Positions 6,910 to 63,958 of a DNA stretch of 64,000 bases are shown in pieces; position 1 is the stretch's first letter, and the number at the start of each line of letters is the position of its first letter. The stretch is from Haliotis rufescens. Taxonomy: Eukaryota. Under the pieces are notes generated by a model. It searched no databases, was not told the origin of the DNA, and saw only the letters and a list, made by a program, of their open reading frames with translations. The translations under genes were made by a program, and so were the position numbers. Location of the stretch: the NCBI RefSeq assembly GCF_023055435.1, contig NW_025964346.1, forward strand, positions 2,418,001 to 2,482,000, given 5' to 3'.

Positions 6910-9900
6910 ATGCCAAGAAGGACTTTGGAATGTATTCTGTGTACCTTGATTATATCTTTAAACATTGTGTTGCTGGTGGTATGTCTGTGCGTCACGATAC
7001 ACCGTATGGGATCGCACAGTTCAGGAAGACATGGCACTCGGGCTCAATACCAGGACTCCGTGAACCAGGTGAGACTCGTGTGTGGATGGTTGTTACTGGA
7101 TGAAGTGTGGCTGGAATGAGTAGGGAAGTTTTACATCTTACGTACGTCATTCGCGCTTCGTGCTTCTAAAACAAATTTTCCTTATGCACCACGGAATGAG
7201 TGAGTGAGACTTCAGACATTGTACCCATGTCGGGAATCGAACCCGGGTCTTCGGCGCGACGAGCGAACGCTTTAACCACTAGGCTACCCGACCACGGGAT
7301 GAAGCTGCCACTTCACATGCTTGTTCCCATCAACCACGACACCCGTATTTGTTCACGACACCCGTATTTGTTCACGACACCCGTATTTCACGACACCCGT
7401 ATTTGTTCAAGAGGTTCGAATCTGATTTTCGATTTTGACGCCCTGTCAGCTTGTATATTGAAAAACCTATGTACCGCCATAATTTTACTTGGTCCTATTT
7501 GTTCAGAATGCAATGGGTGTTGGTATTTGTTTAGTTTTAACACATACTTTCCGTTTTTCGCAATATATTCTAATTTGGTCTCTGATTTGACCATGCTCTT
7601 AAATTATCTCAAATGGCATATTTGGCTTAGGGAGCTGAACTTTGGCATGCGTGTTTCACCTTTTGATGACCCGTGAAGATCGGGGTAGAATAGGTCTTCA
7701 GCAACCCTTGCTTGCCGTAAAAGGTGACTATTTCTGTCGTAAGAGGGCGGTCGAGTAGCCTAGTGGTAGCCCAAGACCCGGGTTCGATTCCCGACATGGG
7801 TACAATGTGTGAAGCCCATTTCTGGTGGCCCCGCCGTGAAATTGCGGGAATATTGCTAAAAGCGGCGTAAAACCATACTCACTCACTCACTGTCGTAAGA
7901 GGCCACTAACGGGATCGGGTGGTCAGGCTCGCTGACTTGGTTGAAGCATGTCATCGTATCCCAATTGCATGGATCGATGCTCATGATGTCAGTCACTGGA
8001 TTGTCTGGTCCGGATATGATTATTTACAGACCGCCGTCATCTAGCTGGGATATTGCTAAGTGCGGTATTAACCAACAAACAAACAAACTTCATGATGACA
8101 TATTTTGTTCAAATCATCAGACTTTAGTTTTGGTTATAATCCCCAATATTCATGCAAAAGTTGTGAATAACCCTGTCAGCTCCAGACAATCGATCCTCGC
8201 AGTTTCATGCTTAAACAGTCACCGAGCCTGACCACCTGATCAAGTTTGTCGCCACTGATGACAAGCATGGGTTGATGGAGATCAACTGTTACTCAGATGT
8301 TCACGGTCAGTGAATGATGTGTTTGTTATCAACTTGTCGCAGGGTCAGGCTTCTAGTCGGCCCAGACAAGTATACGAAGGCAGAGTGTCAATAAAGGTAT
8401 TTATTTGCCTGTAACATGAAACGTCAACATGAGAAAGGTGTTGATTGCTGTCGGCCAATCTTCCAGGCTGACAGCTGACAATTGACTGTCCATATTATAT
8501 GACGATATATATAATAATGATAGGAGTAAAATAGGCAATATATATATATAAGCGCTGATTGGCTATGCATGCTAGTGCCTTTATAAGGAGATAATATACT
8601 GACGTCACATTTATGGCGCGAAGTCAGTGATCCATAAAATTGTTTTGGATGTAATATGGTATTAAAATATGAAACATATATACATATAGTAGTATTCCTT
8701 TTCACACACTGTCTTACGTGTTATGCTAGTAACGTCATTAAGTTAGTAATAGCGATTAGCGCAATGTTTACAATATACGCGATCGATTCTTTACTAGTGT
8801 GTGAGTTAAAGTTTAACGTCACATCGGCAATATTTCAGCCATACAGTGACGAAACAAAATTTGACATCAACAATATATTTTAAACTGTATAAAATTCCGC
8901 CGACAAAGGGTAGTATAATAACTAGAACATCACAGATTTACATAAAACTAGTTAGAGAACATGTACAAATATATTATCATTTTGCAACACAATATAAAAA
9001 CAGGCTATAGATCGCCAACAACTGAAGGTAGATCACCACGCTCGAGTCCATGAGGATTCCTTACTAACTTCCTTGAAGTTACATTACTTCATTGGTTAGT
9101 AAGTACTATATTCGACGTACTTGATACACTAGCAATAAGATATAGATGTAGAAGGCATATATAAGGGAGGTGCTTACCTTTAACATGGAACGTCAACATG
9201 AGAAAAGTGTTGATTGCTGTCGGCCATCCTACCAGGCTGAGAGGTGACAATTGACTGTGCATACAAATTGTCATGACGTCACAGGTAGAAGCCAGGTACG
9301 GGTAGCACGTACAACTCATTACATGCAGACAGTGGAGGAGTGGCATTAAAATGGATGAAAATAGAAATAAGGCTGCCGGCGACAAACTTAAGGTGTATTA
9401 CTCCAGGGAACTTGAATACAGTATAACTGTTTATTGGTGAACTAATTTAGTTGATATCTGACGGCGACTCTTTGCTTGTGTTGCAGAGCCTGGCCCGTTT
9501 GATGACAGAACACCAGGAGCAGGGTGCGTATTCTTCTTATCACCTAATTCAAGATGATACCGACACATCCTCCCCCTTCACTTAAATTTACGTCGGTGAA
9601 GGGCTGTTTTATACCTCGTGCTTAAGTTGCAAAGAAAAATAGGATCTCATTCATATCCGATCTTAGTGCTCGCTACCGACACACAAAGATGAGGACATTC
9701 AATTACAGGGCCCACTTGCACAAAGCGATCTTAGCGCTACGATGATATTAGCTCCGATACTCTGGGCCCAGAGGCTGCGGGTCAGTAACAGCGACATTTA
9801 GTATATGCATAATGCGTTAAACTTATGGACGGCCCTTTGCTACGGTACAGGGGACGTTCTAACTCAAACTAACAATTTCAACGATTAGACATCGGGTCAT

Positions 9901-12254
9901 AGTTCTCAAACCTACACATAATCATCTAAAAAATACAATTAGTCAGTCCATGCAGGTCATGAACGTATATTGAGCAATATTATTGGGTCGTCTTCTCCGA
10001 CGTCCGCTCAGTCACCACCTATTTCAGGTATACAGACTCTGCCAACAGCAACTGGTATTATACGATGAATATTTGAAATTGTGGACGGGAAATGCATTTT
10101 TATATTGTATATAAGAAAAAAAGGCATAATTGTTTCTATTATTTATTTAAACTCGGTTATTTGGCTTTTTGTCATCATTGGTTTATCAATGGAAGCCAGC
10201 TTCTCTTGAAAAGCATCCACTTTGAGATCAGCTGATGACTAACTTAATGAGATTAATGCAGGTGTTGAAAGTCTCGTACGGAAGATCCCTCAGACATGTT
10301 CGTCATGGACATGAGAGCGAAGCTCCGTTCTAGATGCAGAACCTGGCCCTCAATGTTCGCTACGCATCTAAGAACAGGGACACCACAAGCCAGCTCAGAA
10401 CAGGGACACCACAAGCCAGCTCTGTGTGTCAAAGGGTGCTCTCACAGGACATGATTCACATATATGTTCTTATCATCAAATAAATATGTGATATAAGGTC
10501 TTGTTTGAAATATATATATATACAATAGAACATCCAGAACATCTACTGCTTGAGTAGGGCCATAAACAGCTGAAGAACAAAACAATGACTCCTGCACTTA
10601 CTGTCTGCATGTTTTTTTCTTGTAAAAAAGCATTACGACAAAACCACTTTCCCTATTGGCAGACTCACGACCCTAAGAAGATCGAACTCCCCAAAGAAGA
10701 GAACAAGTAACTCAGCAATATTACAGCTATATGACGGCGGTCTGTAAATGATCGAGTCTGGAACAGGCAATCCAGCGATTGACATCATGAGCATCAATCC
10801 ACGCAACTGGGATACGATGATATGCATAACCAAGTCACAGAGCCTGACCACCTGAACCCGTTACGACTAGGACAGTCGCCTTTTACCTACATTAAAGACT
10901 TTTGGAAACAACTGCAGGTCTCGTTCATTGTTCACACCGACCATCGGCCGAAACACATTCCATTTGGCATAAGAGGCGACTAGTGGTGAATATTTATTGA
11001 ATGGTAAATCGGTAATGGTGGCAATATTGATCTTCAAACATTGGCCTGCGACATTGGCAAACAAACAAACAAACAAACAACAAACAAACAGACCCCACTA
11101 TAAACCCAACAAAAGATCAAAATGAAACATCAAGTATACCTGCCCGTCAATATACGCGCTTATGTTTTCAGATGTTGTCAAGCTGCAGCAGGAATTTGTT
11201 GCCGCAGAAGCCACGACTGCCAAACCTGCCGCCCATTGTGGCATACGTCTAACGAATCTTACAGGTACGAGTTACACTATCGTTAAAGTAATAATTGATT
11301 GTTTTAAGAATTAGAAACAAAGTTAGCTTATTTCTGATTCTTAAGGCTAAGTAAATACACTATCTATATACTACATTCTCTGTAAATATGTGAACGACTG
11401 GTTTCGGCATACAGGAGATGTTCCTGTGCTATCCTGGGATGCAAGGTCTTCCGTGTCGTTCTTTCAGGAAGGGATGACGTATACAGAAGGAGCAGTGATA
11501 GTTCCCAGTGCGGGGTACTACTTCGTATACTCACAGNNNNNNNNNNNNNNNNNNNNNNNNNNNNNNNNNNNNNNNNNNNNNNNNNNNNNNNNNNNNNNNN
11601 NNNNNNNNNNNNNNNNNNNNNNNNNNNNNNNNNNNNNNNNNNNNNNNNNNNNNNNNNNNNNNNNNNNNNNNNNNNNNNNNNNNNNNNNNNNNNNNNNNNN
11701 NNNNNNNNNNNNNNNNNNNNNNNNNNNNNNNNNNNNNNNNNNNNNNNNNGTGAGAGAATGCTTGTGTGAGCGAGAATGTGTCTGCGTCTGAGTATGTGTG
11801 TGCGTGTGTGAGAGAGACTGTGTGAGAGTATGTTAGTGAGAGTGTGAGTATGTGTATCTGTGTGTGTGTGTGTGTGAAAGGTGCACATTTTATGATAGAC
11901 AGTCATTATGGTATATGTTCATGGAGATTCGTATACTTATTTTACATCACAATTCCTCGTTACTCTCTGCAGTTGCTATACAGTGGCAGCGGAACCCAGG
12001 AGTTAGACTATGGGCGGATCATTCACGCAGTGGTGAAACAGAAGGCGTCAGAGCTGGAGGAAGCACCAACACCCCTGATGAGGAACCTACAGTCCACCCC
12101 CAGCATCAGACGGGGACGTCCCGCCTACACCACCAGCAGCCTCGGGGCCACCTTCTACCTGGAGGCCCACACCAGGGTCAAGGTCATGTCCAGTGTTCCC
12201 GGGAACATCATCTACTCCCCTTGTTCGAGTTATTTCGGACTTTATCTGGTTTAG
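6910..12254 (+). CDS. TNF superfamily ligand (TNF-1), type II membrane protein, ~230 aa, 5 coding exons
   Basis: join(6910..7068,9487..9523,11172..11264,11415..11536,11973..12254), AG/GT boundaries and phases 0,1,1,0 all consistent. The exon-4 donor abuts an N gap. Protein: short cytoplasmic MPRRTLE, TM CILCTLIISLNIVLLVVCLCVTI, stalk, then TNF homology domain motifs [40 protein letters not shown]. The start codon is the least certain part. Confidence 0.9.
7197..7293 (-). mobile_element. tRNA-derived SINE family B, internally deleted
   Basis: Reverse complement contains A box TAGCCTAGTGG and B box GGTTCGATTCC. Confidence 0.75.
7669..8087 (+). mobile_element. SINE family A interrupted by SINE family B (7745-7890)
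   Basis: Family A head at 7669; family B copy with B box and (CACT)n tail, flanked by duplicated CTGTCGTAAGAGG (7734-7746, 7890-7902). Confidence 0.9.
10710..10884 (-). mobile_element. SINE family A, partial
   Basis: CTCAGCAATATT..CAGCTATATGACGGCGGTCTGTAAAT...GAGCCTGACCACC. Confidence 0.8.
11537..11749. other. Assembly gap (213 N)
   Basis: Run of N immediately after the TNF-1 exon ending ...TCACAG. Confidence 0.99.
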
Positions 12255-13219: not shown

Positions 13220-13285
13220 CAGGCACAGGCACAGGCACATGCACAGGCACAGCCACAGGCACAGGCACAGCCACAGGCACAGGCA
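13220..13285. repeat. (GGCACA)n microsatellite
   Basis: About 11 hexamer copies. Confidence 0.85.
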
Positions 13286-16468: not shown

Positions 16469-16636
16469 TGAGTGAGTGAGTATGGTTTTACGCCGCTTTT
16501 AGCAATATTACAGCAATATCACGGCGGGGGACACCAGGAATGGGCCTCACACATTGTACTCATGTCGGGAATCGAACCCGGTCTGGTCTTCGTGTGACGA
16601 GCGAATGCTTTATCCACTTGATTACTAAACCGCCCC
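16469..16636 (-). mobile_element. tRNA-derived SINE family B
   Basis: (GTGA)n tail, family B body, GGGAATCGAACC (B box reverse complement). Confidence 0.85.
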
Positions 16637-22906: not shown

Positions 22907-25900
22907 TTATACAAGAAAAAGTCCGAAGTACGTGTCGTAGGGGGAGGTGTCGATGTTGTCGGGCACACTGCTGGTGACCTTGACCCTGGTGTTGGCCTCC
23001 AGGTAGAAGGTGGCCCCGAGGCTGCTGGTGGTGTAGGCGAGACGTCCCCGTCTGATGCTGGGGGTGGACTGAAGGTTTCTCATCAGGGGTGTTGGTGCTT
23101 CCTCCAGCTCTGACGCCTTCTGCTTCACCACTGCGTGAATGATCCGCCCATAGTCCAACTCCTGGGTTCCGTTTCCGTGATACAGAATCTGCATGAAAAC
23201 GCCAAAAACACTGACACACAGAGAAACATTTCACAGTCAGAGAAACGATAAGGTTACCTCTTCTCTACATGCGGCAGTATTGACGTTGTTATGTTCTGGT
23301 TACTCATTTCATATACGCCTGTGAAGATGTCTACACTGCGAATACCTCGTATCATTACTATTCACAGTGATTCATAGACACTTTCCAGACGAGCGTTGAT
23401 GAATCATGTCAATAGAAGATCAAGTTGATTAAAATTTAAACAGCGCATTATGAAACAGGAAGATGCACTTTTGTAATTCGACTGAGTGAAGCTTGTCATT
23501 TTAATTACTTTTCCACATTTACATGTATGCAATATGTATAAATACCATTAGTCGAACAAACTGTGTTCCTCTTGTAAATATAACAACTGATGATGAGTAG
23601 TACGTATTGAGACATACCACCAGCTATGCAATGACGTCAAACCAATGGCACTTTTCGACTAACTCAGATGATCCAAAATAGAAGATGTTTCGAAGGTTGT
23701 ATAGTGACAGTGTTGATATTTAGTTGATTTTAAGTAAAACGTAGACTAAAGTTAAATGTCTCGGGACATTATTAAACATGTCTAATGTTTGTGTCAATTC
23801 ACCAATAATCAGGAAAGCAATCCTGCAACGAATAAAAATATAGAGACAATATGTTTCAAACTGTTATAATAAAGTGTATTTTCAAGCTTATTGAGTATTT
23901 CCCGTAAATGATTTGAATAACTGTGCGATAAATCTATAACAAACAATAATTTATAATGTCTACCATGATGTATTTATATCGAGACATCTGCCCGGTGGCA
24001 TAATTCTGTTTATCTTCGTGTCAGCCTACCGTGCTGTAGATGAAGAAGTAGCCCTTCTCTCGGACTATGACGACGCCGTCCCTGTACTCAATACTTCTGC
24101 CCACGTGGGACAGACCGGAGTTCGGGTTCCACCTCAGCGTTACCTCCTCGTCTAAACACAATTACGTCAGACCCTGCATTAACCTGACAGTGTGTGTCTT
24201 TGGCAGTAGTGAGTGAGTGAGTGAGTGAGTGAATGAGTATGGTTTTACGCCGCTTTTAGCAATATTCCAGCAATATCACGGCGGGGGACACCAGAAATGG
24301 GCTTCACACATTGTACCCATGTTGGGAATAGAGCCCGGGTCTTCGGCGTGACGAGCGAACGCTTTAACCACTAGGCTACCCGACCGCCCCTGGCAGTAGT
24401 GAATTTGTTATGGCAACAAACACACTCTTACTATTGTATGTAAATTGTTTGGGTGGCGGGTGCTGCCAGTAGGGTAGGACATGCTTGTCCTATTTGATAA
24501 TACCTGGTGTCATCACTGATTTTGACAGACGGACAGAGTAAAAACATAAACACGTCCTCATCAAATCCATGAGATTTGAAAGCATCATTTACGGCCTTGG
24601 ACCAGCATTTTATTTATTAATAAGTTGACAATTTTTGACATAGTATCATTTAGGTTATATTTCTGTAAATATTGTAGCATATTATATATCGGAGATTTTC
24701 TAATCTATTCCTTGCAAGTAAACTATCTGTACTCATATATTGACCCAGGCGAACTAAAAACATTACTTTAAAAACGCAGTTATACTTTGCATTACATAGC
24801 TTTCCTGAGAAGTAGAGTGCTCTTGTATCTATGTAATACTGTAGTAGCATGATGCCGATAGCATCCAATACAACAATACTGGGACTGCGCCTGTGTAGTC
24901 CCTGAACCTATTTACACAATGGACGCTGTACAACCTCAGGCATGCCATACTCTTTAAGAGGGACTTTGCCCCATACACTGCATCCATAGAGGCCACATGA
25001 TAAGATCATTCTATCCCAGATACGTGCTGCAGATATAGGATTCAGACCACATGTATCTCTTCACATTCAGATTTTGTAAGTTCAATTGATAATTTGTGTG
25101 AAATAATATATACATCTGTATAGTGAATGTTTTATCTGGAGTTGGCGTTATGTAGTTATGAAGAACACTACAATGACAGATGAATGGGCGTTGAAATATA
25201 CAACCAGAGGGTCGGCAGTGAAGTGTGGAACTACAGGGCGAGCTTCAGTGACGTATTTATAGATACTCACTGCTTGGGGAGATCACCGTTGAGATGACCA
25301 AGTGAGCGGCAGGCTTTTGAAGATTTGTCCCATTTCCTTCATAGGCGCTGTGTAAGCTGGCCTGTCTTTCGTAGATGTCTAGTTGAACATTGATGAAAAC
25401 CATGACAAAACCATGACAATAACAGGACAATAACTGCCTTATCGTAGACAGTGGCTCTTATATACAGGAAACATCAATTGGTGCTCAGAGAATTGGTTTC
25501 CGTATTATTCAAATATTTATATTTATTGATGTTTTCATTGTTTCTTCTAATGTAACTTTCGTGACAAGACAAGTGATTGCAGGGAGCGATGAGAGTGTAA
25601 CTGTCCGTGATGAAGATCAGAAGACTCGTCACCAAAAGGAAGGTTTCACTCGTCACATCGTTCTCCGTCACATCACGTTTCGTCACATAACAGGCGGTTT
25701 AGCGTGGTTCAAACCTCGTGGTTTGAGCCGAAATACAGGGATCTGCCTCCATTTTATCATCTAGCTTGAACATCTCTTGATGCGACACATGCCGATAATC
25801 TCATAAACAAAGCGACAAGATTCAAGAACGACCGTATGAGGAAGTACCGTGGTATAATCATCGTATGTTAACTTTGCTTCTCAGACGCATCGTATCAGGA

Positions 25901-28900
25901 AAACTGAGCGCGTGACAATCGCGTCTGACCATGGCACGGGGTTGATGTACTTATACTCCATTTTGGCTGTGTTACATGTTACAAGCTCCAATAAGGTCGG
26001 AAGGAAATTGCCAATTGCATTTGTCACTAGATAAAGTCTTAACACTGACGGAGTCTAATATCCAGAGAGGCACCATTTGAACAGGTCCAAACCTCTGGGA
26101 AATATTAACAAAAGGAATGTGATAAATGTGGGCTGCTATCTCAGCGTGTAACCTGTTTCATACATGGCTACAAGCGATGGAAGTGAAGGGTTAGCAAAAA
26201 CTTACCTGATTCTTGAGAGTTGCTGACGGCCTCAAGTGTCTGTAATATTGTAATAAACCCTTTCAGGAAATTAACAACACCGCAATTATTTGTTATGTTC
26301 TTGCTTTATTTTCGGTTTAGTTGAGGGAGGGGAGTCGAGGGGAGGGGAGGGGAGGGGAGGGGAGGGGAGTCAAGGGGAGGGGAGGGGAGTTGAGGGAGGG
26401 GAGGGGAGGGGAGGGGAGTTGAGGGGAGGTGAGTCGAGGGGAGGGGAGTCAAGGGGAGGGGAGGGGAGTTGAGGGAGGGGAGGGGAGTGGAGGGGAGTCA
26501 AGGGGAGGGGAGGGGAGTTGAGGGGAGGGGAGTCGAGGGGAGGGGAGTCAAGCGGAGGTGAGTCAAGGGTAGGGGAGGTGAGTCGAGGGGAGGGGAGGGG
26601 AGTCGAGGGGATGGGAGGGGAGGTGAGTCAAGGGGAGGTGAGTCAAGGGGAGTCGAGGGGAGGGGAGTCAAGGGGAGGGGAGGTGAGTCGAGGGGGGAGG
26701 GGAGGTGAGTCGAGGGGTTGGGTGGGGAGTCAAGGGGAGGGGAGTTGAGGGAGGGGAAGTGAGGGGAGTTGAGGGGAGGGGAGGGGTGGGGAGTCGAGGG
26801 GAGGGGTGGGGAGTCGAGGGGAGGGGAAGTGAGGGGAGTTGAGGGGAGGGGAGGGGAGGGGAGGGGAGGGGTGGGGAGTCAAGGGGAGGGGAGGGGAGTT
26901 GAGGGGAGGGGAGACGAGGGGAGGGGAGGGGAGTTGAGGGAGGGGTGGGGAGGGGAGTCAAGGGGAGGGGAGGGGAGTTGAGGGAGGGGAGGGGAGGGGA
27001 GGGGAGTTGAGGGAGGGGAGGGGAGTCAAGGGGAGGGGAGGGGAGTTGAGGGAGGGGAGGGGAGGGGAGTCAAGGGGAGGGGAGGGGAGTTGAGGGAGGG
27101 GAGGGGAGGGGAGTCAAGGGGAGGGGAGGGGAGTTGAGGGAGGGGAGGGGAGTCAAGGGGAGGGGAGGGGAGGGGAGGGGAGTTGAGGGAGGGGAGGGGA
27201 GGGGAGTCAAGGGGAGGGGAGGGGAGTTGAGGGAGGGGAGGGGAGTCAAGGGGAGGGGAGGGGAGTTGAGGGAGGGGAGGGGAGTCAAGGGGAGGGGAGG
27301 GGAGTCGAGGGGAGTCAAGGTGAGGGGAGGGGAGGGGAGGGGAGGGGAGTCGAGGGGAGGGAGTCAAGGGGAGGGGAGTTGAGGGAGGGGAGGGGAGTTG
27401 AGGGGAGGGGAGTCAAGGGGAGGGGAGGGGAGTTGAGGGAGGGGAGTCAAGGGGAGGGGAGGGGAGTCGAGGGGAGGGGAGTCAAGGGGAGGGAGGGGAG
27501 GGGACGGCAGGGGACGGCAGAGGACATGAGGGCAGTTGTTTCGTAAAGTTAATTCTCATGGCTACATTCGGCGTAGTAGGCCATGGTTCAGAAAGTAGGA
27601 AGGAGGGTGTGGGGACGGGATGTGGTGTGTGTGTTTGTGTGTGTGTGTCTGTGGGCGTGTGGGCGTGCGTTAGTGTGTGTGCGTGCGTGCTTTCGTGTGT
27701 TGGATCTAGACTAGATATCACTGTTTGAAAAGGTAGATCATTCAACGTGTCTTGATGAGAGCTTAAGTTCTGTTGATAGATTCTTGCAAAGTGTTGATTT
27801 ACAGTATTGGAAAGATGTATGGCCCAAAGTCTTCAGCTGATGTTCACTTTCAGAACGGGGAAATCTATGTATATGGGTATGTTTTGGCACCAGTTGCAGT
27901 GGGGCTGATTCATTGAAGCACTTGTAGGCTGGTGCTCATAGTTTCAGTTCAACTATGTTTTGAGAGCAACCAACGAGCGACATCGGAGCAGGATGAAACT
28001 TTGACGTTCTCGTTTCGATATGTGCAGCTGTGTTGTATGCGCTGAAGCCTTTTGAGTTGTTGATTGGTGATGTCTACCATCAAGCTATTACAACAGTCAC
28101 GCACTGACAGGACTGAAGATCTGACCAGGTGCAGCTCATTGTGAGCAGGTGTCAAGTGCTTCCTATGATGATATGAAACAAGTCTTGCAAATGTGGATTA
28201 CATGCTATTTTATTTTTAGGCAGAAGTCCAGATGAGCCCCACCAGTATTAGAGAAAGCAGTGTTGGAGACCCCAACTAGAATGTCGTTAACTCTAATCTG
28301 TCCTGTTTCAGCTTTGACTTGCTTCCCACCAGCATCTTGTCGTTTTATCTCAGCTTGTTTTCAATCATCCACGACATGATTGTTCTCGGGTGATCTTTGG
28401 ACGCCCTCGGGCGTAGCAGTAGTAGCTCGTGAGACATCTAGTTTTGATTTGACTCGTACTTTAAACTAGTATATAGCGTGAAAACAATTGGTCCGAGAAC
28501 TGATCCTTGGGGAACACCACGCTGGAGAAGGTTGTTTGCATCCATCTGTGCCTTTTCAATCACTGGAGATATGAACGGTAAATTTGTTTTAGATTTTAGG
28601 TCTAACACAACCTTTCTTGAAACTTCGTGGAACTTCCCAAGATGGAAGACTTTGATTAATAATATTTGTTATGACAGGAAGTAGATTATCAGGATGATCG
28701 ATCACTATCTGTGTTGGGGTAGGATTATGTCGGCAGTGATGTTGGTTTCCACTCCATAATCATTTTCCGTACATCTAACTCTGAGAATGGTTTATATTCC
28801 TCCATAATGATGCTATTGCAACTGTCATGCCAGTCAGGTCAGATCAAACGGAGACTCGCCACAAAAACCATCTGTGACGTCATTATTCATTGATTAGACA

Positions 28901-43900: not shown

Positions 43901-45218
43901 GTCAGTCCAAACACAGTCACCAGTACTCTAGGGTCCGATTACCAATTTAGCCAGGAAGCTGGGGTAAGTAATATTACTCCCTTTTTAAGACGAACAAAAT
44001 AATTAATTTCGCGTCGTGTAAAGAAATCCTCAATTGAAAAAAAGAAGTTTCTCTTGTGAGTTAAATCACAAGCGTTTCTTGACAGAAAGGTAAACATCAT
44101 TAGTCAGACTGAAACAGCTGCCTAAAGCTATTGCCTACATATATAACCCGGATACCTGGAGGATCCTACGAATTTCTGTACTTGTGTTTCTTATTCATTA
44201 TTGAACCATACATTTTTGAACTTTTCGTCATTGAACAATTCGTCATTGAACAATTCGTCATTGAACAATTTGTTATTGAACAATTCGTTATTGAACCATT
44301 CGTTATTGAACAAATTATTCGGCCGAATGGATGTATATAGTTAATAGTCACAAAGACTTTGTAACTGCCTTAGTGTCGCCAAGAAACAACAGATGATTTC
44401 CTACCAACGTGCTCCAGACATCAGTTGTTCTTATACTTCCTTACTGACCTGTTTAACGTGGCTCTCGATGTCTTGTTCCGCCACTGGCTGTTCCCCCGAG
44501 GTGTTACCGTGGTTCTTGGTTACTTTTATGATGATGATGATGGTGATGGTGCCTAGGAGAACACCGTTCACGGCAATGGCAATAACTGCAGCGTATTTGG
44601 GTTTTCTCTGAAATGCAATAAACCACCAAATGAGAATCATGCTGTGTGTTGTCATGACACTCCTAGTGGCACAGGGAATATTGGAAACTTCAGACCAGCT
44701 TCAATGTAATGTTGTCACTATTTCAAAGAGTCCAGACAATGAAAATGGACATCCCTGACTGTAACAGTGAGAAGGCGACTAGAATATCTGGTTGCCTCAG
44801 CACAAGACACACTTGTCATTATATGACCACATTACATTCAGTTTGCAATCAATAATTGTTTCATTTTTAAAACAAACAAATCTACGAAACAGAAAAAGCG
44901 AAGAATATATGAATAGGATTCATTCTATAATAATAGACAATCAGACACCTTCGTATTTTTCAAAGATACACTATGAAACATACTAACATCCGGACGAATA
45001 TATCGGAGTGCTACATAATATCACGGAGTGCTACAGAATATCACAGAGAGTCACAGAATACCACAGAGCGTCACAGAATATCACAGAGCGTCACACACTA
45101 CCAACTAGGTGCAGAGGCAAAGCAAACTTATTTATGACACAAAGCGTTGAACCGTGATAGCGATCATAGTTACCCATTTCTTGATGAATGCTTGGAGGCA
45201 GTTCTCTGGTCGATCCAT
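22907..45218 (-). CDS. TNF superfamily ligand (TNF-2), type II membrane protein, ~249 aa, 6 coding exons
   Basis: complement(join(22907..23188,24030..24151,25271..25378,26206..26239,44449..44607,45174..45218)), canonical AG/GT and compatible phases. Protein: [44 protein letters not shown], ...[17 protein letters not shown]..., [33 protein letters not shown]. Joining the TM exon across an 18.2-kb intron is inferred from phase match and similarity to the TNF-3 TM exon. Confidence 0.85.
24213..24390 (-). mobile_element. tRNA-derived SINE family B, full length
   Basis: TSD TGGCAGTAGTGA at 24201 and 24391; tRNA-like head and (GTGA)n tail; lies in a TNF-2 intron. Confidence 0.92.
26318..27510. repeat. 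1.2-kb G-rich purine tract based on (GGGGA)n
   Basis: GGGGA pentamers punctuated by GTTGA, GTCAA and GTCGA. Confidence 0.95.
27700..28870 (-). mobile_element. Decayed L2/CR1-type LINE
   Basis: Minus strand near 28480-28520 encodes [13 protein letters not shown]; downstream QLKRLQRIQ; many stops. Confidence 0.7.
29660..30900 (-). mobile_element. Penelope-like retroelement relic
   Basis: [20 protein letters not shown] and RYI-type RT motifs; shares the flank CCCGTCACAAACACATGCAAA with the copy at 35860. Confidence 0.6.
31325..31870. repeat. 40-bp minisatellite x~13
   Basis: Unit GTGCGTATCAACGACTTTCTCATGTCAAACTCCAACTTGT. Confidence 0.95.
32760..33382. mobile_element. MITE-like element with ~64-bp terminal inverted repeats, containing a SINE B copy (33006-33174, +)
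   Basis: 32760-32823 is the near-exact reverse complement of 33319-33382; no coding capacity; no clear TSD. Confidence 0.75.
34200..34710. mobile_element. Non-autonomous interspersed repeat with internal ~180-bp duplication
   Basis: Repeated AAGGGCC(A/G)TAACTCT and GAGAAAACTTG motifs plus (GGAC)n, an arrangement common in molluscan non-autonomous DNA elements; class not determinable here. Confidence 0.45.
35024..35748. repeat. 24-bp minisatellite (CAAACAGTGTCAAAACAGTAAAAC) x~30
   Basis: Direct tandem copies; explains the KTVKPNSV ORFs. Confidence 0.95.
35860..36470 (-). mobile_element. Penelope-like retroelement relic
   Basis: [37 protein letters not shown] resembles the N-terminal part of Penelope-type RT. 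Confidence 0.6.
36643..37185. repeat. Local nested duplication (~330-bp period with ~90-bp subunits)
   Basis: AGCAGTAGGTAGGGCATTATTATCGAG at 36643 and 36972; TGCACTGTAGTTAGTTCTGTA repeated. Confidence 0.8.
37634..37900 (-). mobile_element. THAP-domain relic, probably from a DNA transposon
   Basis: [13 protein letters not shown]...LSVSAVPTM matches the THAP C-terminal C..HF...AVPT signature, with the Cys lost and a frameshift upstream. Confidence 0.5.
38425..38672. repeat. 15-bp minisatellite (TTATTGAACCATTCG)n; related array at 44195-44312
   Basis: Degenerate tandem copies at two sites within the same intron. Confidence 0.85.
40626..41430. repeat. 107-bp tandem repeat x~7.5
   Basis: CTTTCTGTACC recurs at 40729, 40836, 40943 and onward. 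Confidence 0.95.
41540..41965. repeat. (CCACA/CCGCA)n compound microsatellite
   Basis: Pentamer-based low-complexity tract. Confidence 0.9.
42245..43762. repeat. 37-bp satellite x~40
   Basis: Unit AACGTTGAGATCCCAATAACGGCGGAAATAGCTCGCT, homogeneous in the centre and decayed at the edges. Confidence 0.95.
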
Positions 45219-51583: not shown

Positions 51584-54500
51584 CTAGGTGCGAAACATGC
51601 CGAGGTATGTTCTGTGTGGAGATGTGTCCAGGTTGGCCCCGATGTTGGACACCAGCATGATCCTAGTGACGTCACGGATGTTGACGTGAGACTGGAGGAA
51701 GGTGGCCCGGCAGGGGTAGGTACCCGGCGCCGACTGACTGGCCTGGGTGTCCTGCGCCGCAGTGATGGCTTGACCAGATGCGTCCAGCAACACCACACTG
51801 GTGGTCACTACCCGGTCAGTCGACTCGTCCTTGCACGCAATCTAGAGTGAAGGGAAAACGGAACAGTAAAACACGTCAACCTGGATGTAAACTGAATCTC
51901 GCAGGACTTCATGGATCTGCTACTCATCACATTACCCAAATACAAGGACGTCCAGATCCTGAAGCTACTGCCAGTCTCTGGTGTTCGGGCAACTATGACG
52001 TCAACACTGTGACATGCAAACGTTTAGATCTCAGTAACCGCTCATTTTTGGACGTGACAGGAATCTGGAACATGTAATCTTTTTTAATCATACGCGAGGA
52101 ATTATGCGCTTTTAGAAGGAATGACCACACTACATTACTATACAAACAACCCGCATCGATAATGAATGACGTATATAGGCATTTGAAATAAACACTTGTC
52201 TTTCTGAACAGACCTTGTGATATGACGGGGGTGATACACGGGCATTCATCAATACTACCCTTGCGTAGATGAGATAAAATCCTGGGTGTCTGATCACCAC
52301 CGAGCCGTCGGGGGCAAGGTCCACGGAGTTCAAGAAGTTGATTTCTGTGTTGTAGCGCCAGTGCAGTCCAGGATTGTTGCCTGTAAGCCAATTGAAAAAA
52401 ATTACATAACAAACAAATAGTTGTTTCCTGACATGAATAGGACAAAAATATTATATATTGTGCACACGAGATACTGAATATTGCTGGGTGCGGCGTTGAA
52501 CAATAAAGAAAGAAACAAACAAACTGATGCCACGACTTCAAACGTGTTCTGCTGATATGTTACACACAACGGTAGGCCACATGTCGTCCTATTGGCTGGC
52601 GAAGTCTCGTGATAACTTGGGCGTTTAATAATTGTAAACTATGAGCGCACTGGTACGCAGCGGGTATGTGGTGTATATATACCAACGACAAAAAGTAACA
52701 AAAAGTAACAGGTGGTCAAAAAACACCTTGGTTTAACCGTATAATAACGCTCACGCAATGCCACGACTTGCTGAAAACCCATGTGTACACGCCGTTGTAT
52801 ATGCTGCAACAGGGAATAGGACGACCACAACACACCAGAGGTTTTAGTGTTCATCGAAACACTTTCATTCATTGGAGTCGTTATCTACAGCAGGGCAACA
52901 CTCATGACTTGCTACGGAACGGTCATCCGCGTGTGAGTTTACGTCAGCAAGACAACTATCTACGGAATCGATCATCTGTTACATGAACAACAACTCCTGG
53001 TTTGAGGTGTGGTGCTGTGGCAGAACCGTACGCCAACAGTTGAGGGAGCACAACATCCAGCCTCCACATCCAGCGACACGCCAAATGTTGCTTCCACGTC
53101 ACCGACAAGCAAGTCTAGTTACGTGTAGACAGCATCTGAGGTTCAGAAGACAACACCGGGACAACATACTGATCACTGATGACGTCGTCAGTTTGGGTGT
53201 CGAGATATAATGTAAAAAATGTCATCATAATTCAAGGGAGAGCACAACTCAATATTGTTAATGTCTTTGAATGGCCTACGCATCTCGGACGACATCGTTA
53301 GAGATCATGTTCTACCCTTTAGCGCTTCCATAGTTTCCAGCTTTGAACACTAATATGTACGTTTGCAGAACATAACGGAAAATAAGCACAACGTCTGTTA
53401 TGAGTTGGGTTTCACTCCTCCGCCAGCGTTGCTCCAACAACGTCACGGCTGGGACCTAATACACAGTATCCATGCGGGAGTCGAACCCGAGTGTTCCGCC
53501 TGACGAGTGAACCACTAGACCACCCCGTGACTACTTTTAAACACATTTCTTACCATTTGGACGCCCTGACAATATAAGTTGATCTTTCCCTAATTTACAA
53601 GCATTGCATGTTCATAGCACAAGCAGGCTGTCACACCATCCCAACGTCCACCCTCATCACGTGACTTCACACCTCAACATGCACACAGCACAAGCACACC
53701 GTCACACCAAGCACACCGTCACACCATCCACCCCTGTGTCGAGCAGCGAGTGATACAGTACCGTCTGGAGTATGGTGAAGGGCAGGTGCGAGATGACAAG
53801 CTGGTTTGAGAGAAGATTCACTCCGGCTCGCAAGTCGATGTAGCATTTCAATCTCTAGAAAAAGAAACATAACAAACCGGATGTGAATCATAGTCCACAG
53901 CTAATGCAATCAAGGTGAAGCCAGCGCTGACAGGTGATTTCCATATACAGATACTGGCAAGGTGCATGCGGAAGTATGGCGACAGGCCCTGTGTAGAGCA
54001 GCCTTTGTAATTCAGCAGACGGAATTCAAATTAAGGTATAGTTTTTCAGCAAAATCAGTAAATACACTATGGTGTTCCTAGATTTTCTAGTCAAACGATC
54101 ACTTGATTGCATGGTTTGTTTACGTCGCATGACAGGAGTTCTGCTGCGATGCGTCAGGCAATAAATACTGACTTTTAATGCAAATCTTGTGAACAGCGGT
54201 TGCCACCGGTAGGGCAGGATGTGCTTAGTCTTTTCGCGAACACCTGGTGTCATCACTCATTTTCTGTGGTCCTTTCATATAGTTTTCAGTTATTCTTGCC
54301 CTTGGCGCCAAATAGAATCTGTTTCCCCGGAAAATTAAGGAATACACCAAATACACCAGGGGCTGTGAATGATGCAAACGTAACTGCAGAAACTGTTGTT
54401 AAATACCATGGTGAAGACATGGCATGGATTACCATGTCGGTCATTGGTATTGTGTTTTCTGCAGTACATACCTGAAGGGTGTACGGCCCCTGACTATTTG

Positions 54501-55545
54501 TCATAATCATTTGTATCTTGTTAACAGTAAGTTCGTTTTGTAGGTTTGAACATTGGCAGCAAAACACTGAGCTTTTCCGACGCCCTGGTTCGTTTTGGAA
54601 ACGTTAGAACCAAATGTTCACAGAAAAAACGTTTCCGGAATCATACAAATTCACGTGAATGAAACGTTTTCAAAAGCATTTCTGGGATATTTAACAAAAA
54701 CATTTTAGAAATGTTATAATCAAATGTTCACAGTTAATGTTAATGGTTATAGAACCATACACAATAAAATGGTTATGGAACCATACACAATATAACATTT
54801 TTTAAAAGCATTTCTGGAATATTTTAGAAAAAAATATTTGAAACGTTATGACCAAATGTTTCCGGAAAGTGTTTCTTAAACGTTTCTGGAACCATTCAAA
54901 ATCACGTGAATAAAACATTTTTTAAAACATCTTCGGAACATTTCGTGAAATGTTTCGGGATGTTTTATAACATTTCCGTGGCTATTCTCGTGCTTTGACG
55001 TTCTATATTACCTCGCTCGCTTGTCACCAGGTCGGCATCAGCATGTTGGATGGCCTGTAATATAGGGTCAAGGTTCAAATATACAAAACAATTGTCAAGG
55101 AAATAACACAACATTACAATTTGGTTTCGCATGCCACGCATTATGTCTTGTGATCAAACAAACCACATGGAAATAGATCTATGTAAGGCTGCAGCCGTCT
55201 TGTCGTGTGTCCAAGTTCATATGTTATCAATTAATAGTTATATACATGCAGAGTAATGTTCATCTACAAACACAGTCACTCAGAAATAGGTTCATGGATG
55301 TTTGGTGTGAAACGGAATAAACGTCTCAACTGTATGTTTGTTGTTATTTTATCCAAAAGAATCCCTGATGCCCTCAAGTGAAATATGTGATGAGATATAC
55401 AAACTTGTTTGACATCGTGTTCGACGTCCGGATTATTCTGCCCGCCTCCGGCACCAACGTTCATCACCACACCCACCAGTGCGCCTAGCAGGATGATGTT
55501 CCAAGACACCGCCATGACAGCGACAACCTTCATGCTTGGAGTCAT
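51584..55545 (-). CDS. TNF superfamily ligand (TNF-3), type II membrane protein, ~218 aa, 5 coding exons
   Basis: complement(join(51584..51841,52259..52380,53762..53854,55012..55054,55405..55545)), canonical AG/GT and phases 0,1,1,0. TM VVAVMAVSWNIILLGALVGVVM; THD motifs KPACHL, LHW, GSVVIRHPGFYLIYAR, TYLGMFRT*. Start uncertain: ATG at 55545 or 55575, or an upstream exon spliced to the acceptor at 55567. Confidence 0.85.
52750..53340 (+). mobile_element. Tc1/mariner transposase relic
   Basis: RNGHPRVSLRQQD, CGRTVRQQLREHNI and ILITDD resemble the Tc1 HTH linker and first catalytic Asp region; heavily decayed. Confidence 0.6.
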
Positions 55546-58728: not shown

Positions 58729-59099
58729 CGAATGTACAGTTCTGACACTGTCGTCATGGTTCTAAATTATACGTCATGGTTCTAAATTATACAGACATTA
58801 CATTGTGTTTGTCATTACAATGCAATCTCGTTTCCGTGTCCTCCATAGCCTGACCGGCAACAAAAAGTATTCACTTGAAAATTTGATTTGACCGAACAAT
58901 AAAAGAAAGATTGAGGTATGAATCGAAAACCGATGTGGCAACTTTAATACACAAAGTTAATTGACAGACGATTTGTTTCGCTGAAAGAAAACATTCATAC
59001 ACAACTTACGACGGATGATTGATATCTTATTTTTATTTTTCGTTTAACAAAAATAATGAAGAAATTCAACAACAATATTGTAAAACATGTTCCCACGCG

Positions 59100-62000
59100 C
59101 TACACCAGGTAGGCCTCCAGGTAGTTGTACCTGGGTTGCAGCACAAGACCACACGGCTTGGTGACCCTCACAAACACCTGGTCACCCCCCTCCATCTGGA
59201 ACACCCCCTGGGCGCTGCTGGGGACGTTGCAGACTTTGTCAGCATCCCCGCACTGGGACGACTTGTTCTCCAGCAGCAGCATCTCCTGACCGCCTCGCCG
59301 TCGGTACACCTGCAGCAACAGCACAGACTCCTTCGTCGCCGCACTCGCCTTCGTGTCGGCGAACACCACTTTAGAGTTGACGTAGTACAAGCCTGCACGT
59401 GCAAACTGTATGTGTGTCCCCGGGGAGGTCAAGGTCAGGTGCCCGTTAATCAGAGCATCCTCTCCACTCCACTTCAGGAGCTGGTTCTCACCCTCTGCGG
59501 GGGAAAGACTTGTGTTACGTTAATATAGCACAGCTAAAGGAACATATAACTCACTGTTATTTAGAAATGTTTCCGTCGAATGTTTGCGAGTGAATACTTT
59601 ACATGATACCCTCTTCACAAAATAGCATACATCTTCACCGTGATCTGTTGATCACCTGACTACCACTGACGTTACAGTGTGAATACTGTTCACAATATTC
59701 CAGGTATATGATGACAAAGTGTAGATAATCCAGACTGGCCCGGTCAAACCAGTGAGCAACATATACGATAACCCGATCAACAAACAGAGCCTGAACTCTT
59801 ACAACAAGCCATGGCGTGCAGGGAGTTTACCCTACTCCATCAGGGACTGCATAGCGTGGTGCTGCATAGTGTGGTGCTACATAGCGTGGTGCTACACAGT
59901 GTGGTGCTACATAGTGTGGTGCTACATAGCGTGGTGCTACACAGTGTGGTGCTACATAGCGTGGTGCTACATAGCGTGGTGCTACATAGTGTGGTGCTAC
60001 ATAGTGTGGTGCTACATATTGTGGTGCTACACAGTGTGGTGCTACATAGTGTGGTGCTACATAGTGTGGTGCTACATAGTGTGGTGCTACACAGTGTGGT
60101 GCTACATAGCGTGGTGCTACATAGTGTGGTGCTACATAGCGTGGTGCTACATAGTGTGGTGCTACACAGTGTGGTGCTACATAGTGTGGTGCTACACAGT
60201 GTGGTGCTACATAGTGTGGTGCTACATAGTGTGGTGCTACATAGCGTGGTGCTACATAGTGTGGTGCTACATAGTGTGGTGCTACATAGTGTGGTGCTAC
60301 ATAGTGTGGTGCTACATATTGTGGTGCTACATAGTGTGGTGCTACATAGTGTGGTGCTACATAGTGTGGTGCTACATAGTGTGGTGTGGTGCTACATAGT
60401 GTGGTGCTACATAGTGTGGTGCTACATAGTGTGGTGCTACAAAGTGTGGTGCTACATAGTGTGGTGCTACATAGTGTGGTGCTACATAGTGTGGTGCTAC
60501 AAAGTGTGGTGCTACATAGTGTGGTGCTACATAGTGTGGTGCTACATAGTGTGGTGCTACATAGTGTGGTGCTACACAGTGTGGTGCTACACAGTGTGGT
60601 GCTACATAGTGTGGTGCTACATAGTGTGGTGCTACACAGTGTGGTGCTACATAGTGTGGTGCTACATAGTGTGGTGCTACATAGTGTGGTGCTACACAGT
60701 GTTGTGCTACATAGTGTGGTGCTACATAGTGTGGTGTGGTGCTACATAGTGTGGTGCTACATAGCGTGGTGCTACATAGCGTGGTACTACATAGCGTGGT
60801 GCTACATAGTGTGGTGCTACATAGCGTGGTACTACATAGCGTGGTGCTACATAGTGTGGTGCTACATAGCGTGGTGCTACATAGTGTGGTGCTACATAGT
60901 GTGGTGCTACATAGTGTGGTGCTACATAGTGTGGTACTACATAGCGTGGTGCTACATAGTGTGGTGCTACATAGTGTGGTGCTACATATTGTGGTGCTAC
61001 ATAGTGTGGTACTACATAGCGTGGTGCTACATAGTGTGGTGCTACATAGTGTGGTGCTACATAGTGTGGTGCTACATAGTGTGGTGTGGTGCTACATAGT
61101 GTGGTGCTACATAGTTTGGTGCTACATAGTGTGGTGCTACATAGCGTGGTGCTACATAGTGTGGTGCTACATAGTGTGGTACTACATAGTGTGGTGCTAC
61201 ATAGTGTGGTGCTACATAGTGTGGCGCTACATAGTGTGGTGCTACATAGTGTGGTGCTACATAGTGTGGTGCTACATAGTGTGGTGCTACATAGTGTGGT
61301 GCTACATAGTGTGGTGTGGTGCTACATAGTGTGGTGCTACATAGCGTGGTGCTACATAGCGTGGTGCTACACAGTGTGGTGCTACATAGTGTGGTGCTAC
61401 ATAGTGTGGTGCTACATAGTGTGGTGCTACATATTGTGGTGCTACATATTGTGGTGCTACATAGTGTGGTGCTACATAGTGTGGTGCTACATAGTGTGGT
61501 GCTACATATTGTGGTGCTACATATTGTGGTGCTACACAGTGTGGTGCTACATAGTGTGGTGCTACATAGCGTGGTGCTACATAGCGTGGTGCTACACAGT
61601 GTGGTGCTACATAGTGTGGTGCTACATAGTGTGGTGCTACATAGTGTGGTGCTACATATTGTGGTGCTACACAGTGCACTGAATGTTTGCAGCTGGTGAC
61701 TTACTTGCTTTAGAGTTGTTGTCTTGAAGGTCAAGGTCGACATGGACAGCGGTTCTCTTCGGCATGTTCTTGTATCTCTCTGCTGATGCTGTGGAAACAA
61801 TATAAACAGAAGTAAAATAAAAACGTCACAAATAATTAACACAATAACTATCAGTCTGATCAAACACAGAACACATTACTTCCTGTGTATAATGACTGCA
61901 GCATTATAACTTTCTGTTCTATTTCTGGTCTCGTACGAGTCACTAAAGTTATTTCCTTATCGCGACCTCAGTACAAACAGATCCCTTATCACCCTGCATC

Positions 62001-63958
62001 GTAACCTCTGTAAGTATCTTATAATAAATCATTCACACGCAGCCGCGGTTACCGTATCCCTGTGCTGCTCCCATTAACGCTGTTCATATCGACTTGTCAC
62101 TGTGTGTCGCGACATAACATAGTAGAGTTTACATTAAGGAAAAGATAGCAGGTCCTACCACACCCCCTATCATTTTCCCCCTGAGGTCTATCCGTGAGTG
62201 AGTATGGTTTTACGCCGCTTTCAGCAATATCACAGCGGAGGACACTAGAAATGGGCTTCACACATTGTACCCATGTCGGGAATCGAACCCTGGTCTTCGG
62301 CGTGATGAGCGAACGCTTTAACAACTAGGCTACCCGACCGCCCCTCTACCCGTGAAGATCCGGGTAGAGTAGGTCTTCAACAACCCATGCTTGCCGTAAA
62401 GGGCGACAATGCTTATCGTAAGATGTCATCGTATCTCAATATGCGTGGATCCATGCTCATGATATCAAAGTAGAGCCCACAACAGTTCTGAGTCACGTGA
62501 TTGGATTTGAACAACGGACCGTCTGATCACAGGTCGGACGCCTTGTCCACGTGACCAAAGAGTTTAACCCCGTCAGCAAGATGACAAGATCATCTGTGGG
62601 ATGACTCCACGTCCTGCTACAATATTAATTACAGGATTGTCTGGTCCAGACTCGATTATTTACAGACAGCCGTCATATAGATGAAATATTGGTGAGTGCG
62701 GCGTTAAACAACAAACACACAAACAAACACACAGACATAGAAGGAAGTGATGGAGAAACTTGGGCCTACCCTTTGCATGGTCATGCTTGTAACGCTTCAG
62801 GACGTACTGAAACACAGAGAACACGTTCATTAGCCACAACATGACGTCAAGATGTGTCACACAAAGCGTACTAGAGACACCTTCAATCTAATTGTTTACT
62901 TGTGTATTTTCCTGAATAAGGGGGGATTTTGTTTGTTTTTTGTTTACCGCCCCTCTCAGCAATATTCCAGCTATATGACGGCGGTCGGGAAATAATCGAG
63001 TTGGGGCCAAAAAATCCAGTGACTGACATCATGAGCATCGATCCATGCATATGGGATACGATGACATGCATCAATGAAGTCAGCGAGCCTCGCCACCAGA
63101 ACGAGTTCGTCCCCTCTTACGACAAGCATAATCGCCATTTACAGCAAGCATGGTTTGCTTAAGACCTGTTATACCCCGGATATTCTCGGGTAGAGTGACG
63201 GGGTGAGGCGGGTTACAAAGTCAGGCTGGATAATTACATGACAACGAGGACACAATCGCAGGGTATCTTAAATAGGTTTTCTGGGTCCACACCAATTCCA
63301 GAGGGGGAATTATGTCAGAGCGAATATACATTGTACCCCCGGGCGGGTCACTACACAGAACTACAATCACCTTCTGTATGAGAAGCGTGTGGTTCTTGGA
63401 GCAGCACAAGTCTCCCTCCTTGATGTCGAACTTGTAAATGTTATCACGTCTGTCATCATCAGTAAGATACACATCCATACACTTCAGACAGTTGTCGTCA
63501 CTAGGAGCTGACAGTGGCTTGTCATGCTTGACTGCACACCCCACAACAAGTATCGTGATCAAAAGTAACACATCCAATATTGAAAATATGGCAACAACTT
63601 TCTTCCAAAACGGATCTTGTAAAGATGTAGTTTTGTAGCTTTTCTCCCCCTGACTCTCTGGAATGGAAACATCATTTGACGTGTCGTCTTCTGTTTGTCT
63701 GAGTGGTACAATAACAGTGTACACATTATTTGCATCGTTACCCACGACCTGATTGTAGCTGGGAAGGTCGTCTTGTACGTCTCGTGTCTGTGGCAACTTA
63801 GATTTATCAATCAGAGGTTCTTCATCAGGTGGAGCTGTCTTACATGTAATCACTGCCTCGAGAGGAATTGTCTTGTCACGAACACCCGGTGCCGGATTCA
63901 GCGCTACTGGTGGCTGTGCGTCAGCGTTCACCCTGTGGATGTGACCGTTGTCCTTCAT
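59100..63958 (-). CDS. TNF superfamily ligand (TNF-4) with long cytoplasmic domain and Cys-rich stalk, ~367 aa, 4 coding exons
   Basis: complement(join(59100..59494,61705..61788,62770..62806,63371..63958)), canonical AG/GT and phases 0,1,1. About 120-aa cytoplasmic N-terminus, TM VVAIFSILDVLLLITILVVGCAV, stalk CLKC...LCC, THD motifs RTAVHV, LKW, ARAGLYYVNSKVVF, AQGVFQMEGGDQVFV, NYLEAYLV*. The start is only 42 nt from the window edge, so an upstream extension cannot be excluded. Confidence 0.88.
59850..61677. repeat. 15-bp satellite (CATAGTGTGGTGCTA) x~120
   Basis: Fills most of the last intron of TNF-4; explains the VVLHS, WCYIV and APHYV ORFs. Confidence 0.97.
62198..62344 (-). mobile_element. 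tRNA-derived SINE family B
   Basis: Family B body with imperfect TSD TCTATCCGTGA (62187) / TCTACCCGTGA (62345). Confidence 0.85.
62348..62722 (+). mobile_element. SINE family A with internal deletion and unrelated insert (~62468-62632)
   Basis: Head ACCCGTGAAGATCCGGGTAG; the 3' part resumes at GGATTGTCTGGTCCAGACTCG. Confidence 0.8.
62929..63191 (-). mobile_element. SINE family A
   Basis: Full-length reverse-complement copy in TNF-4 intron 1. Confidence 0.85.

Follow-up and report, generated by a model that had tools for sequence, protein, structure and literature searches.

The window analysed here, 64,000 nucleotides of Haliotis rufescens DNA, carries four spliced, open TNF-superfamily genes, g1 on the plus strand and g2, g3 and g4 on the minus strand. 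g1 and g2 face each other; the four genes are therefore not arranged head-to-tail. Each encodes a single N-terminal transmembrane helix, called with a hydropathy window and not a topology predictor (best 19-residue hydropathy 2.25-3.03), followed by a mini-exon (37, 34, 43 and 37 nt in g1 to g4, phase 0 to 1), an exon for the A strand (93, 108, 93 and 84 nt, phase 1 to 1, with the motifs KPAAH, KPAAH, KPACH and KRTAVH) and the THD exon or exons. Frames that are open once spliced, AG/GT ends at all visible junctions and database models confirmed this architecture, which a preliminary description of the window had proposed, and all four genes proved real, with some corrections to their models.

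In g1, exon 1 (6910..7068) holds the start codon and the transmembrane helix (residues 9-27), and RNA-like contigs cover it from 6820 and 6878. The mini-exon (9487..9523), the best of 97 candidates and consistent with RNA-like contig sizes, precedes the A-strand exon (11172..11264), THD exon 4 (11418..11536) and the last exon (11973..12254), which codes THD strands C-H and the stop. Exon 4 has a choice of acceptor, 11415 or 11418, and one RNA-like contig uses the latter, which lies 3 nt further on and amends the earlier model; the exon-4 donor is an N in the assembly copy. g2 starts with a coding exon (45174..45218) that had been missed and that comes from database model P0001, with which g2 agrees once this exon is included. 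The transmembrane exon (44449..44607), the mini-exon (26206..26239, best of 476 candidates and present in P0001), the A-strand exon (25271..25378), THD exon 4 (24030..24151, 122 nt, of which 57 are shared with g1 exon 4) and the last exon (22907..23188, 100% to P0001) follow.

g3 comprises exon 1 with the transmembrane helix (55405..55545), the mini-exon (55012..55054), the A-strand exon (53762..53854), THD exon 4 (52214..52380, 167 nt) and a last exon with a degenerate THD (51584..51841); it is identical to database protein P0026 at every letter. In g4, exon 1 encodes a long cytoplasmic tail, the transmembrane helix and a stalk with cysteines (63371..64000, on to about 64189), followed by the mini-exon (62770..62806), the A-strand exon (61705..61788) and a single THD exon (59100..59494). 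The g4 start had been placed at 63958, which is wrong: the window part matches the C-terminal 367 residues of P0027 (444 aa), which puts the start near 64189, past the window end. Every mini-exon ranks first by score in its own intron, where 0.03-0.4 candidates of such score are expected by chance. The RNA nature of the reads is a guess, and we counted RNA-like contigs for visible spliced joints only; on this basis, the g1 exon 4-exon 5 joint is present in two of four runs (X4 and X14). For g2, g3 and g4, the evidence for the junctions is splice signals together with exact matches to database models rather than reads.

Profile searches verified the family assignment. The complete g2 (68 bits), g4 (47.3 bits) and g3 proteins pass the PF00229 cut-off, g3 barely (24.8 versus 23 bits), and the two g1 THD exons pass separately (exon 4, 35.9 bits; last exon, 25.4 bits). 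The g2 last exon and the g4 THD exon score 38.3 and 51.2 bits. Moreover, spliced g1 matches a TNF profile built without its own subfamily (E 2e-20). A low-confidence AlphaFold2 model of g2 (pLDDT 49) matches the jelly-roll of LIGHT, FasL and TNF, and the Atlas model of g2 reaches TM 0.86 to a TNF cluster. C1q (PF00386) had no match on the proteins or anywhere on contig C568, and none of the 87 PF00229 matches in the H. rufescens genome overlaps any of the 94 C1q matches.

The four genes form one end of a group of nine THD loci at C568:2.23-2.48 Mb (about 250 kb); no further THD exons were found in the 120 kb downstream or the 54 kb upstream of it. Exon-4 synonymous sites are saturated between paralogs. 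These comparisons support the earlier proposal that the TNF cluster is old, arose by local duplication and extends outside the window. The initial third of the tract described below is gone from locus D, and locus E is broken. Sequence comparison shows g3 and g4 to be old paralogs without conversion, with 18-25% identity to the other genes and, for g4, no significant BLASTP match. One g4 relative occurs in H. rubra, on a contig equal in length to that of the cluster genes there, and another in Gigantopelta; both also speak for an old cluster. P0002 of H. cracherodii was considered as the g2 ortholog and dropped, since its exon-4 residues are identical at 17 of 35 positions, whereas true pairs reach 33-34; a sister paralog is the likelier identity. 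The cluster neighbours are ApoL genes and mobile elements.

The low pairwise similarity noted earlier holds for g3 and g4 but not for g1 and g2, which have 50% protein identity and agree at 189 of 195 bases in a block of the last exon. This homogenized tract, which had gone unmentioned, spans last-exon codons 7-71 in g1 (11991..12185, plus strand, with 189-194 of 195 bases shared with each of four paralogs) and 22976..23170 (minus strand) in g2; g3 lacks it. Among g1, g2 and the upstream paralogs A, B and C, it differs at 1-6 of 195 bases (97-99% identical). Over all 10 pairs of these five genes, mean synonymous difference is 0.045 in the tract versus 0.733 in 35 exon-4 codons, and 188 of 195 positions are invariant versus 27 of 105 in exon 4; for g1 and g2, the contrast between tract and exon 4 gives a Fisher p of 7e-8. 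The last exon is the sole low-copy DNA common to the complete g1 and g2 spans. Genome-wide, the tract matches seven places, every one inside the cluster.

The block has sharp edges within the exon that vary between pairs, and in g1, g2 and C it ends at the GH loop. Identical third positions cluster in all four cluster pairs tested (permutation, p<1e-4), whereas the same test on the unlinked family member X (contig C235), our one unlinked control gene, gives p 0.05-0.37 in three pairs. X is not homogenized (synonymous difference 0.53-0.57). In RNA-like contigs of four of four runs, the tract core collapses to one contig with paralog-specific ends, which is evidence of near-identity and not identity, as collapsed contigs lose rare variants. 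The THD exons of four other clusters (19 usable out of 20, L060 being excluded for a wrong reading frame) show either uniform likeness or uniform divergence and no comparable step; this comparison covers THD exons alone, and whole exons may have been converted there.

Comparison of four Haliotis species, for which the other three are represented by proteins from automatic gene models (P0007 and P0017 being mis-joined), revealed a conflict between the two parts of the protein. In the N-terminal half, orthologs fall together (A with A, D with D), whereas the tract groups by species lineage. For the tract, AU tests rejected grouping by orthology (p 0.014 and 0.032), and for the N-half they rejected grouping by species (p 9e-5, 1e-127 and 2e-62); the groups were defined with the trees already in view, and the tract offers only 65 columns. 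P0014, whose last exon belongs to g1, was kept out of the AU test on the tract and out of the tract figures of species divergence. The H. rubra paralogs and the H. asinina paralogs each have their own residues in the tract, missing in orthologs. Over its 65 residues, orthologs differ at 6-7 in A versus 12-18 in X, while exon-4 divergence is equal; the tract thus changes between species about half as fast as the same part of X.

The low synonymous difference limited to the tract, the tree conflict and the sparing of unlinked X therefore point to repeated interlocus gene conversion within one exon. We propose, with a probability of roughly 0.8, that repeated conversion keeps the tract alike in five genes, whose products are predicted to have a common trimer core and common DE and EF loops beside variable AA' and GH loops. 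Conversion would take place between linked copies and be templated by genomic DNA, because both gene orientations participate and one pair also has the last 19 intron bases in common. It would have been ongoing since before the split of the sampled Haliotis species, and selection may help to maintain the tract and to halt it at the GH loop. g3 and g4 would have diverged beyond conversion and likely act separately.

The strongest competing explanation accepts conversion but denies it a function: the last exon would be the sole block long and similar enough to keep converting once the remainder had diverged, and the proteins would be separate homotrimers. The tract does lie in the longest coding exon (282-285 versus 122 nt), and its counterpart is the better conserved region in unlinked X too (47-54 of 65 residues between species). 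Loss of part of the tract in D and the breakage of E also suit a neutral process, as does the non-significant enrichment of interface residues in the tract of the A + g2 trimer model described below (p 0.10). The mid-exon end at the GH loop and the halved rate relative to X fit selection but do not prove it, and we consider a functionless tract a real possibility, if not the probable one.

Much less credible is an account without conversion, in which strong purifying selection on the protein, an RNA element or an overlapping reading frame fixes the tract. GC-biased substitution is a frequent, non-obligatory sign of gene conversion, and it is absent here: fixed changes number 21 to GC versus 19 to AT, and GC3 of the tract (0.77-0.78) shows no rise over X (0.75). 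Long other-frame ORFs overlap the last exon (165 codons in g1, 190 in g2), and RNA-like contigs from differently labelled organisms have 0-2 other letters in the core. However, a synonymous identity of 95% is beyond the reach of protein selection, X retains the motif of the tract without its DNA sequence, and in both H. rubra and H. asinina the paralogs of the one species have changes in common that orthologs lack. We judge this account improbable.

About as improbable is long-range alternative splicing, whereby several 5' cassettes would be joined to common last exons. Database models P0007 and P0014-P0016 do place D/E 5' exons ahead of a last exon of g1 type that lies 125 kb off, and P0017, from H. 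asinina, combines P0010's N-half with the P0008 last exon. Yet each gene has its own last exon, g1 exon 4 is joined to g1 exon 5 in the RNA-like contigs described above, the start of D's own exon 5 is visible in three of four runs, and the switch point of P0007 is intra-exonic, between codons 2 and 6; short-read mis-mapping via the tract accounts for the chimeric models, and splicing of this kind is very improbable. Near-identical blocks are easily mis-assembled, and local database models are mis-joined, but an assembly or polishing artefact or a single very recent exon copy, the least probable reading, is largely refuted by copies that keep their own diagnostic bases at seven variable positions, independent runs with a common core and paralog-specific flanks, edges that vary by pair and three other species with the same pattern in different residues.

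The predicted consequences for the proteins follow from where the tract lies. It codes the CD loop through strand G, taking in the DE and EF loops together with roughly half of the interface predicted for the trimer; the converted paralogs differ in their AA' and GH loops. With contact loops taken from the LIGHT:HVEM complex, as given in the available part of PMC8558838, three of five receptor-contact loops are nearly unchanged between g1 and g2. A mixed trimer predicted for A with g2 reached a score of 0.89 against a best control of 0.00, with a score mark that 51 of 78 solved pairs and 2 of 108 mismatched pairs reach, although this score may reflect likeness to solved TNF trimers and is uninformative on which member binds. 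At least 92% of contacts recur between runs, and partner pLDDT is at least 79. Among the 44 interface residues listed for this model, 24 lie in the tract and 32 are invariant across the five genes.

The earlier suggestion that low similarity implies distinct receptors thus lacks support for g1 and g2 and is still plausible for g3 and g4. With tract loops and interface nearly unchanged, overlapping receptors or mixed trimers, rather than distinct receptors, are therefore likely for the converted paralogs according to these models. The products are predicted to be type II membrane trimers with overlapping receptor use, able to form mixed trimers, and the paralogs to differ in stalk and expression as well as in the half of the receptor groove that varies. 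Lymphotoxin alpha/beta is a known mixed TNF trimer. As a conjecture that we think unlikely to hold, five or six co-expressed paralogs in which conversion keeps the trimer core and one groove face constant might mix subunits freely into many different trimers, as a combinatorial TNF system; the variable AA' and GH loops would then adjust the choice of receptor or the strength of the signal, much like a protocadherin code in a cytokine.

Fast divergence across the whole domain is usual for TNF ligands. The abalone THD is alignable with TL1A, LIGHT, TNF and lymphotoxin-alpha over all strands (TL1A E 6e-13) and shares the predicted trimer, but the residue aligned to the DE-loop tyrosine important in LIGHT, TL1A, FasL and TNF is non-aromatic. 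Database names after vertebrate ligands are labels only and do not imply orthology.

Clustered, lineage-specific type II TNF ligands are known from molluscs: the excerpted sources give 76 genes in Mercenaria mercenaria, 65-67 of them on one chromosome (PMC8905726), and up to 27 TNF paralogs within one mollusc (bioRxiv 10.1101/2024.07.27.603686). The abalone cluster differs from the expansions as described there in that old paralogs have one sub-exon block in common at 97-99%. The word "conversion" does not occur in the available text of the former, nor "gene conversion" in that of the latter, and we found no report of partial-exon conversion in TNF ligands in the literature searched. Clustered protocadherins of fugu, zebrafish and mammals offer a parallel from an unrelated family; per the portion of PMC1852091 at hand, their conversion is regional, repeated and lineage-specific, and a variable N-terminal part escapes it while the C-terminal part is near-identical. 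There, however, whole ectodomains convert and GC3 rises, whereas the abalone tract is 195 bases inside one domain, involves both gene orientations and shows no GC rise. In red/green opsins and TPRX1/TPRX2, converted parts are closer to the paralog than to the ortholog and divergence is retained where function is thought to differ, as far as the accessible sections of PMC3924837 and PMC8208926 describe; inverted neighbours convert in TPRX (PMC8208926, same sections). In the opsins it is the introns that convert, with a small exon region exempt (PMC3924837, likewise). The abalone case is the reverse: conversion spares introns and most exons and acts on one island in five to six genes.

The combination of a constant and a variable half separates the domain's two contributions to the receptor groove, which makes the cluster a natural domain-swap experiment on receptor choice and mixed trimers of invertebrate TNFs. 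In practice, reads, qPCR primers and RNAi placed in the tract do not discriminate among five or six genes, and THD-based trees misplace the converted ones; public models of the cluster are already mis-joined.

A self-comparison of the window reveals an inverted match between the final exons of g1 and g2, two of the four TNF-superfamily ligand gene models found there. Over codons 7-71 of this exon (hereafter the tract; 11991..12185 on the plus strand in g1 and 22976..23170 on the minus strand in g2), g1 and g2 differ at 6 of 195 bases, whereas there is no match in codons 1-6 or the tail, nor in exon 4 (57/122), the introns or the 3' UTRs. The tract recurs at 98-99% to g1 in the related upstream loci A, B and C, partially in D and in degraded form in E, and outside these cluster loci no match was found in the rest of the genome. 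Compared pairwise (10 pairs), the five genes A, B, C, g1 and g2 show a synonymous difference of 0.045 in the tract and 0.733 in exon 4, and a non-synonymous difference of 0.007 and 0.406, respectively. In gene X, a family member on another contig, synonymous sites of the tract differ at 0.53-0.57.

Purifying selection alone is an unlikely cause, because it cannot hold synonymous sites; the same argument was made for fugu protocadherins (PMC1852091). On these sequence comparisons, the tract has very likely undergone repeated interlocus gene conversion. Its edges differ from pair to pair, and A, B and D are alike up to the stop codon. Moreover, A and C have their last 19 intron bases in common, with more than five such bases in only 1 of 21 pairs, which points to a genomic template rather than cDNA. 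GC bias is absent from the tract.

A set of 17 proteins, drawn from four Haliotis species, was cut at the exon border. In the tree of the N-terminal halves (15 rows), A clusters with A and D with D across species, whereas in the tract tree the rufescens and cracherodii cluster genes group all together (95/97) and those of rubra and asinina sit beside their own paralogs. In AU tests each half rejects the grouping of the other, the groups having been defined with the trees already in view. The core (12044-12186) assembles as one contig with paralog-specific branches at its ends in each of four sequencing runs, which bear four organism labels; contigs drop rare variants, so all that this collapsed core shows is that near-identity is not confined to this assembly. 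Public isoforms from two species (P0007, P0014-P0016; P0017) pair the 5' exons of one paralog with the last exon of another, and were likely mis-joined via the common tract.

The gene models were built by reading all six frames, searching for motifs and scoring splice sites. g1 (6910-12254) lies on the plus strand and the other three on the minus strand, and each has an open frame from its start codon through its stop. The exon sizes and phases given in the preliminary description hold in all four, and the TNF domain (PF00229) is present in each. In each model the mini-exon is the best candidate of its intron (chance expectation 0.03 to 0.4 per intron). Among database proteins, P0026 equals g3, P0027 has the g4 model as its end and begins 189 bases outside the window, and P0001 is g2 plus one extra first exon; these are automatic models, listed under Haliotis rufescens, so they agree with ours rather than prove them. 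Protein searches found no database protein with the 5' exons of g1. A 476-letter contig from an RNA-like run (X1) holds g1 exons 1 and 4, with the spacing and total length predicted for a product that includes both small exons and begins exon 4 at 11418, and the exon 4-exon 5 joint is seen in loose ends of two further runs (X4 and X14). These RNA-like contigs support the g1 model. RNA-like contigs also extend about 2 kb past the stop codons (12254-14373, plus; 22907-21097, minus), which suggests that g1 and g2 may have long 3' UTRs that converge without meeting. A short 3' UTR element directly after the stop codon (12263-12296) is common to g1 and C.

The tract, placed by alignment to TL1A, spans the CD loop through strand G, with strands named as in the TNF fold. 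With loop limits set by us, the five genes are invariant at 10/10 residues of the DE loop, 9/10 of EF and 9/12 of CD, compared with 2/17 in A-A', 0/11 in A'-B' and 6/13 in GH. Between species, the tract changes at about half the rate of the same part of X, and exon 4 as fast as that of X. A modelled trimer of two A subunits and one g2 subunit scored 0.89 (best control, 0.00) against a mark reached by 51/78 solved pairs and 2/108 mismatched pairs, with at least 92% of contacts agreeing between runs and partner pLDDT of at least 79; since TNF trimers have been solved many times over, this score reflects likeness rather than binding, and cannot distinguish which relative binds. Among the listed interface residues, 24/44 lie in the tract (enrichment p 0.10) and 32/44 are invariant. 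In LIGHT:HVEM, the receptor lies between a pair of protomers, where it contacts the DE, AA', GH, CD and EF loops (PMC8558838). The tract stops at one of these contact loops; in opsins, a pattern of this kind has been read as selection against conversion (PMC3924837). The chief alternative account of the tract's existence is a neutral island of homology. We predict overlapping receptor use among the tract genes, and possibly mixed trimers.

The preliminary description had proposed low similarity and distinct receptors for all four ligands; for g3 and g4 the low similarity holds and distinct receptors are plausible, but for g1 and g2 the proposal is not supported. g3 has a TNF homology domain (THD) split as in the tract family, has no tract, and joins that family weakly (SH-aLRT 88, long branch). 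g4 carries its THD in a single exon and has a cysteine-bearing stalk and 197 cytoplasmic residues; relatives of it occur in H. rubra (75%) and in Gigantopelta (34%).

Over 422 kb surrounding the window (C568:2418001-2482000), a profile search yielded nine THD loci: g1 to g4 and, upstream of g1, A, B and C on the minus strand and D and E on the plus strand, E being broken by deletions. Genome-wide, PF00229 gave 87 matches, of which 75 by hand count span at least 90 of 127 profile positions, and none overlaps the 94 C1q matches. Large TNF arrays are already known from molluscs (PMC8905726; bioRxiv 10.1101/2024.07.27.603686) and tunicates (PMC12843592), and clustered TNF genes are by themselves ordinary. 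Full-text searches covering few subscription journals turned up no report of this cluster or of gene conversion between TNF ligands, so an earlier description is possible. The conversion island is apparently undescribed so far, and it alters the functional reading of the genes of an otherwise known cluster type.

Further large TNF arrays lie in the same genome at C605:9.97-10.24 Mb and 13.8-13.98 Mb, C556:36.25-36.58 Mb and C168:3.5-4.96 Mb, in some of which THD exons are 90-98% identical throughout. Locus E (C568:2313259-2314570, plus) is a partial duplicate of D, 90% identical, with deletions in its last exon; P0013 of H. cracherodii is an E-like open model that shares its four-residue gap. 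At C568:2254271-2254435 (minus) there is an orphan remnant derived from a D-like first exon. Between E and g1, the cluster holds four apolipoprotein-L family ORFs (PF05461, E 1e-13 to 1e-21; L012:4738-5625, L016:846-1241, L016:9106-9999 and L020:5300-6187, in stretches of C568). In an LTR retroelement inside the cluster (L011:5816 to L012:1426), the gag-like, reverse transcriptase, RNase H and integrase frames are long and open, and fragments of decayed Tc1/mariner transposase and retroelement integrase occur at window 4162-4977 and 17800-18700. Long tandem arrays occupy window 16703-17644 (period 96), 26325-27514 (5), 35024-35749 (24), 40625-41440 (107), 42246-43763 (37), 56651-58729 (23) and 59850-61676 (15). 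The 107-base repeat unit, in the long intron of g2, contains an AG...GT stretch with a mini-exon-like score.
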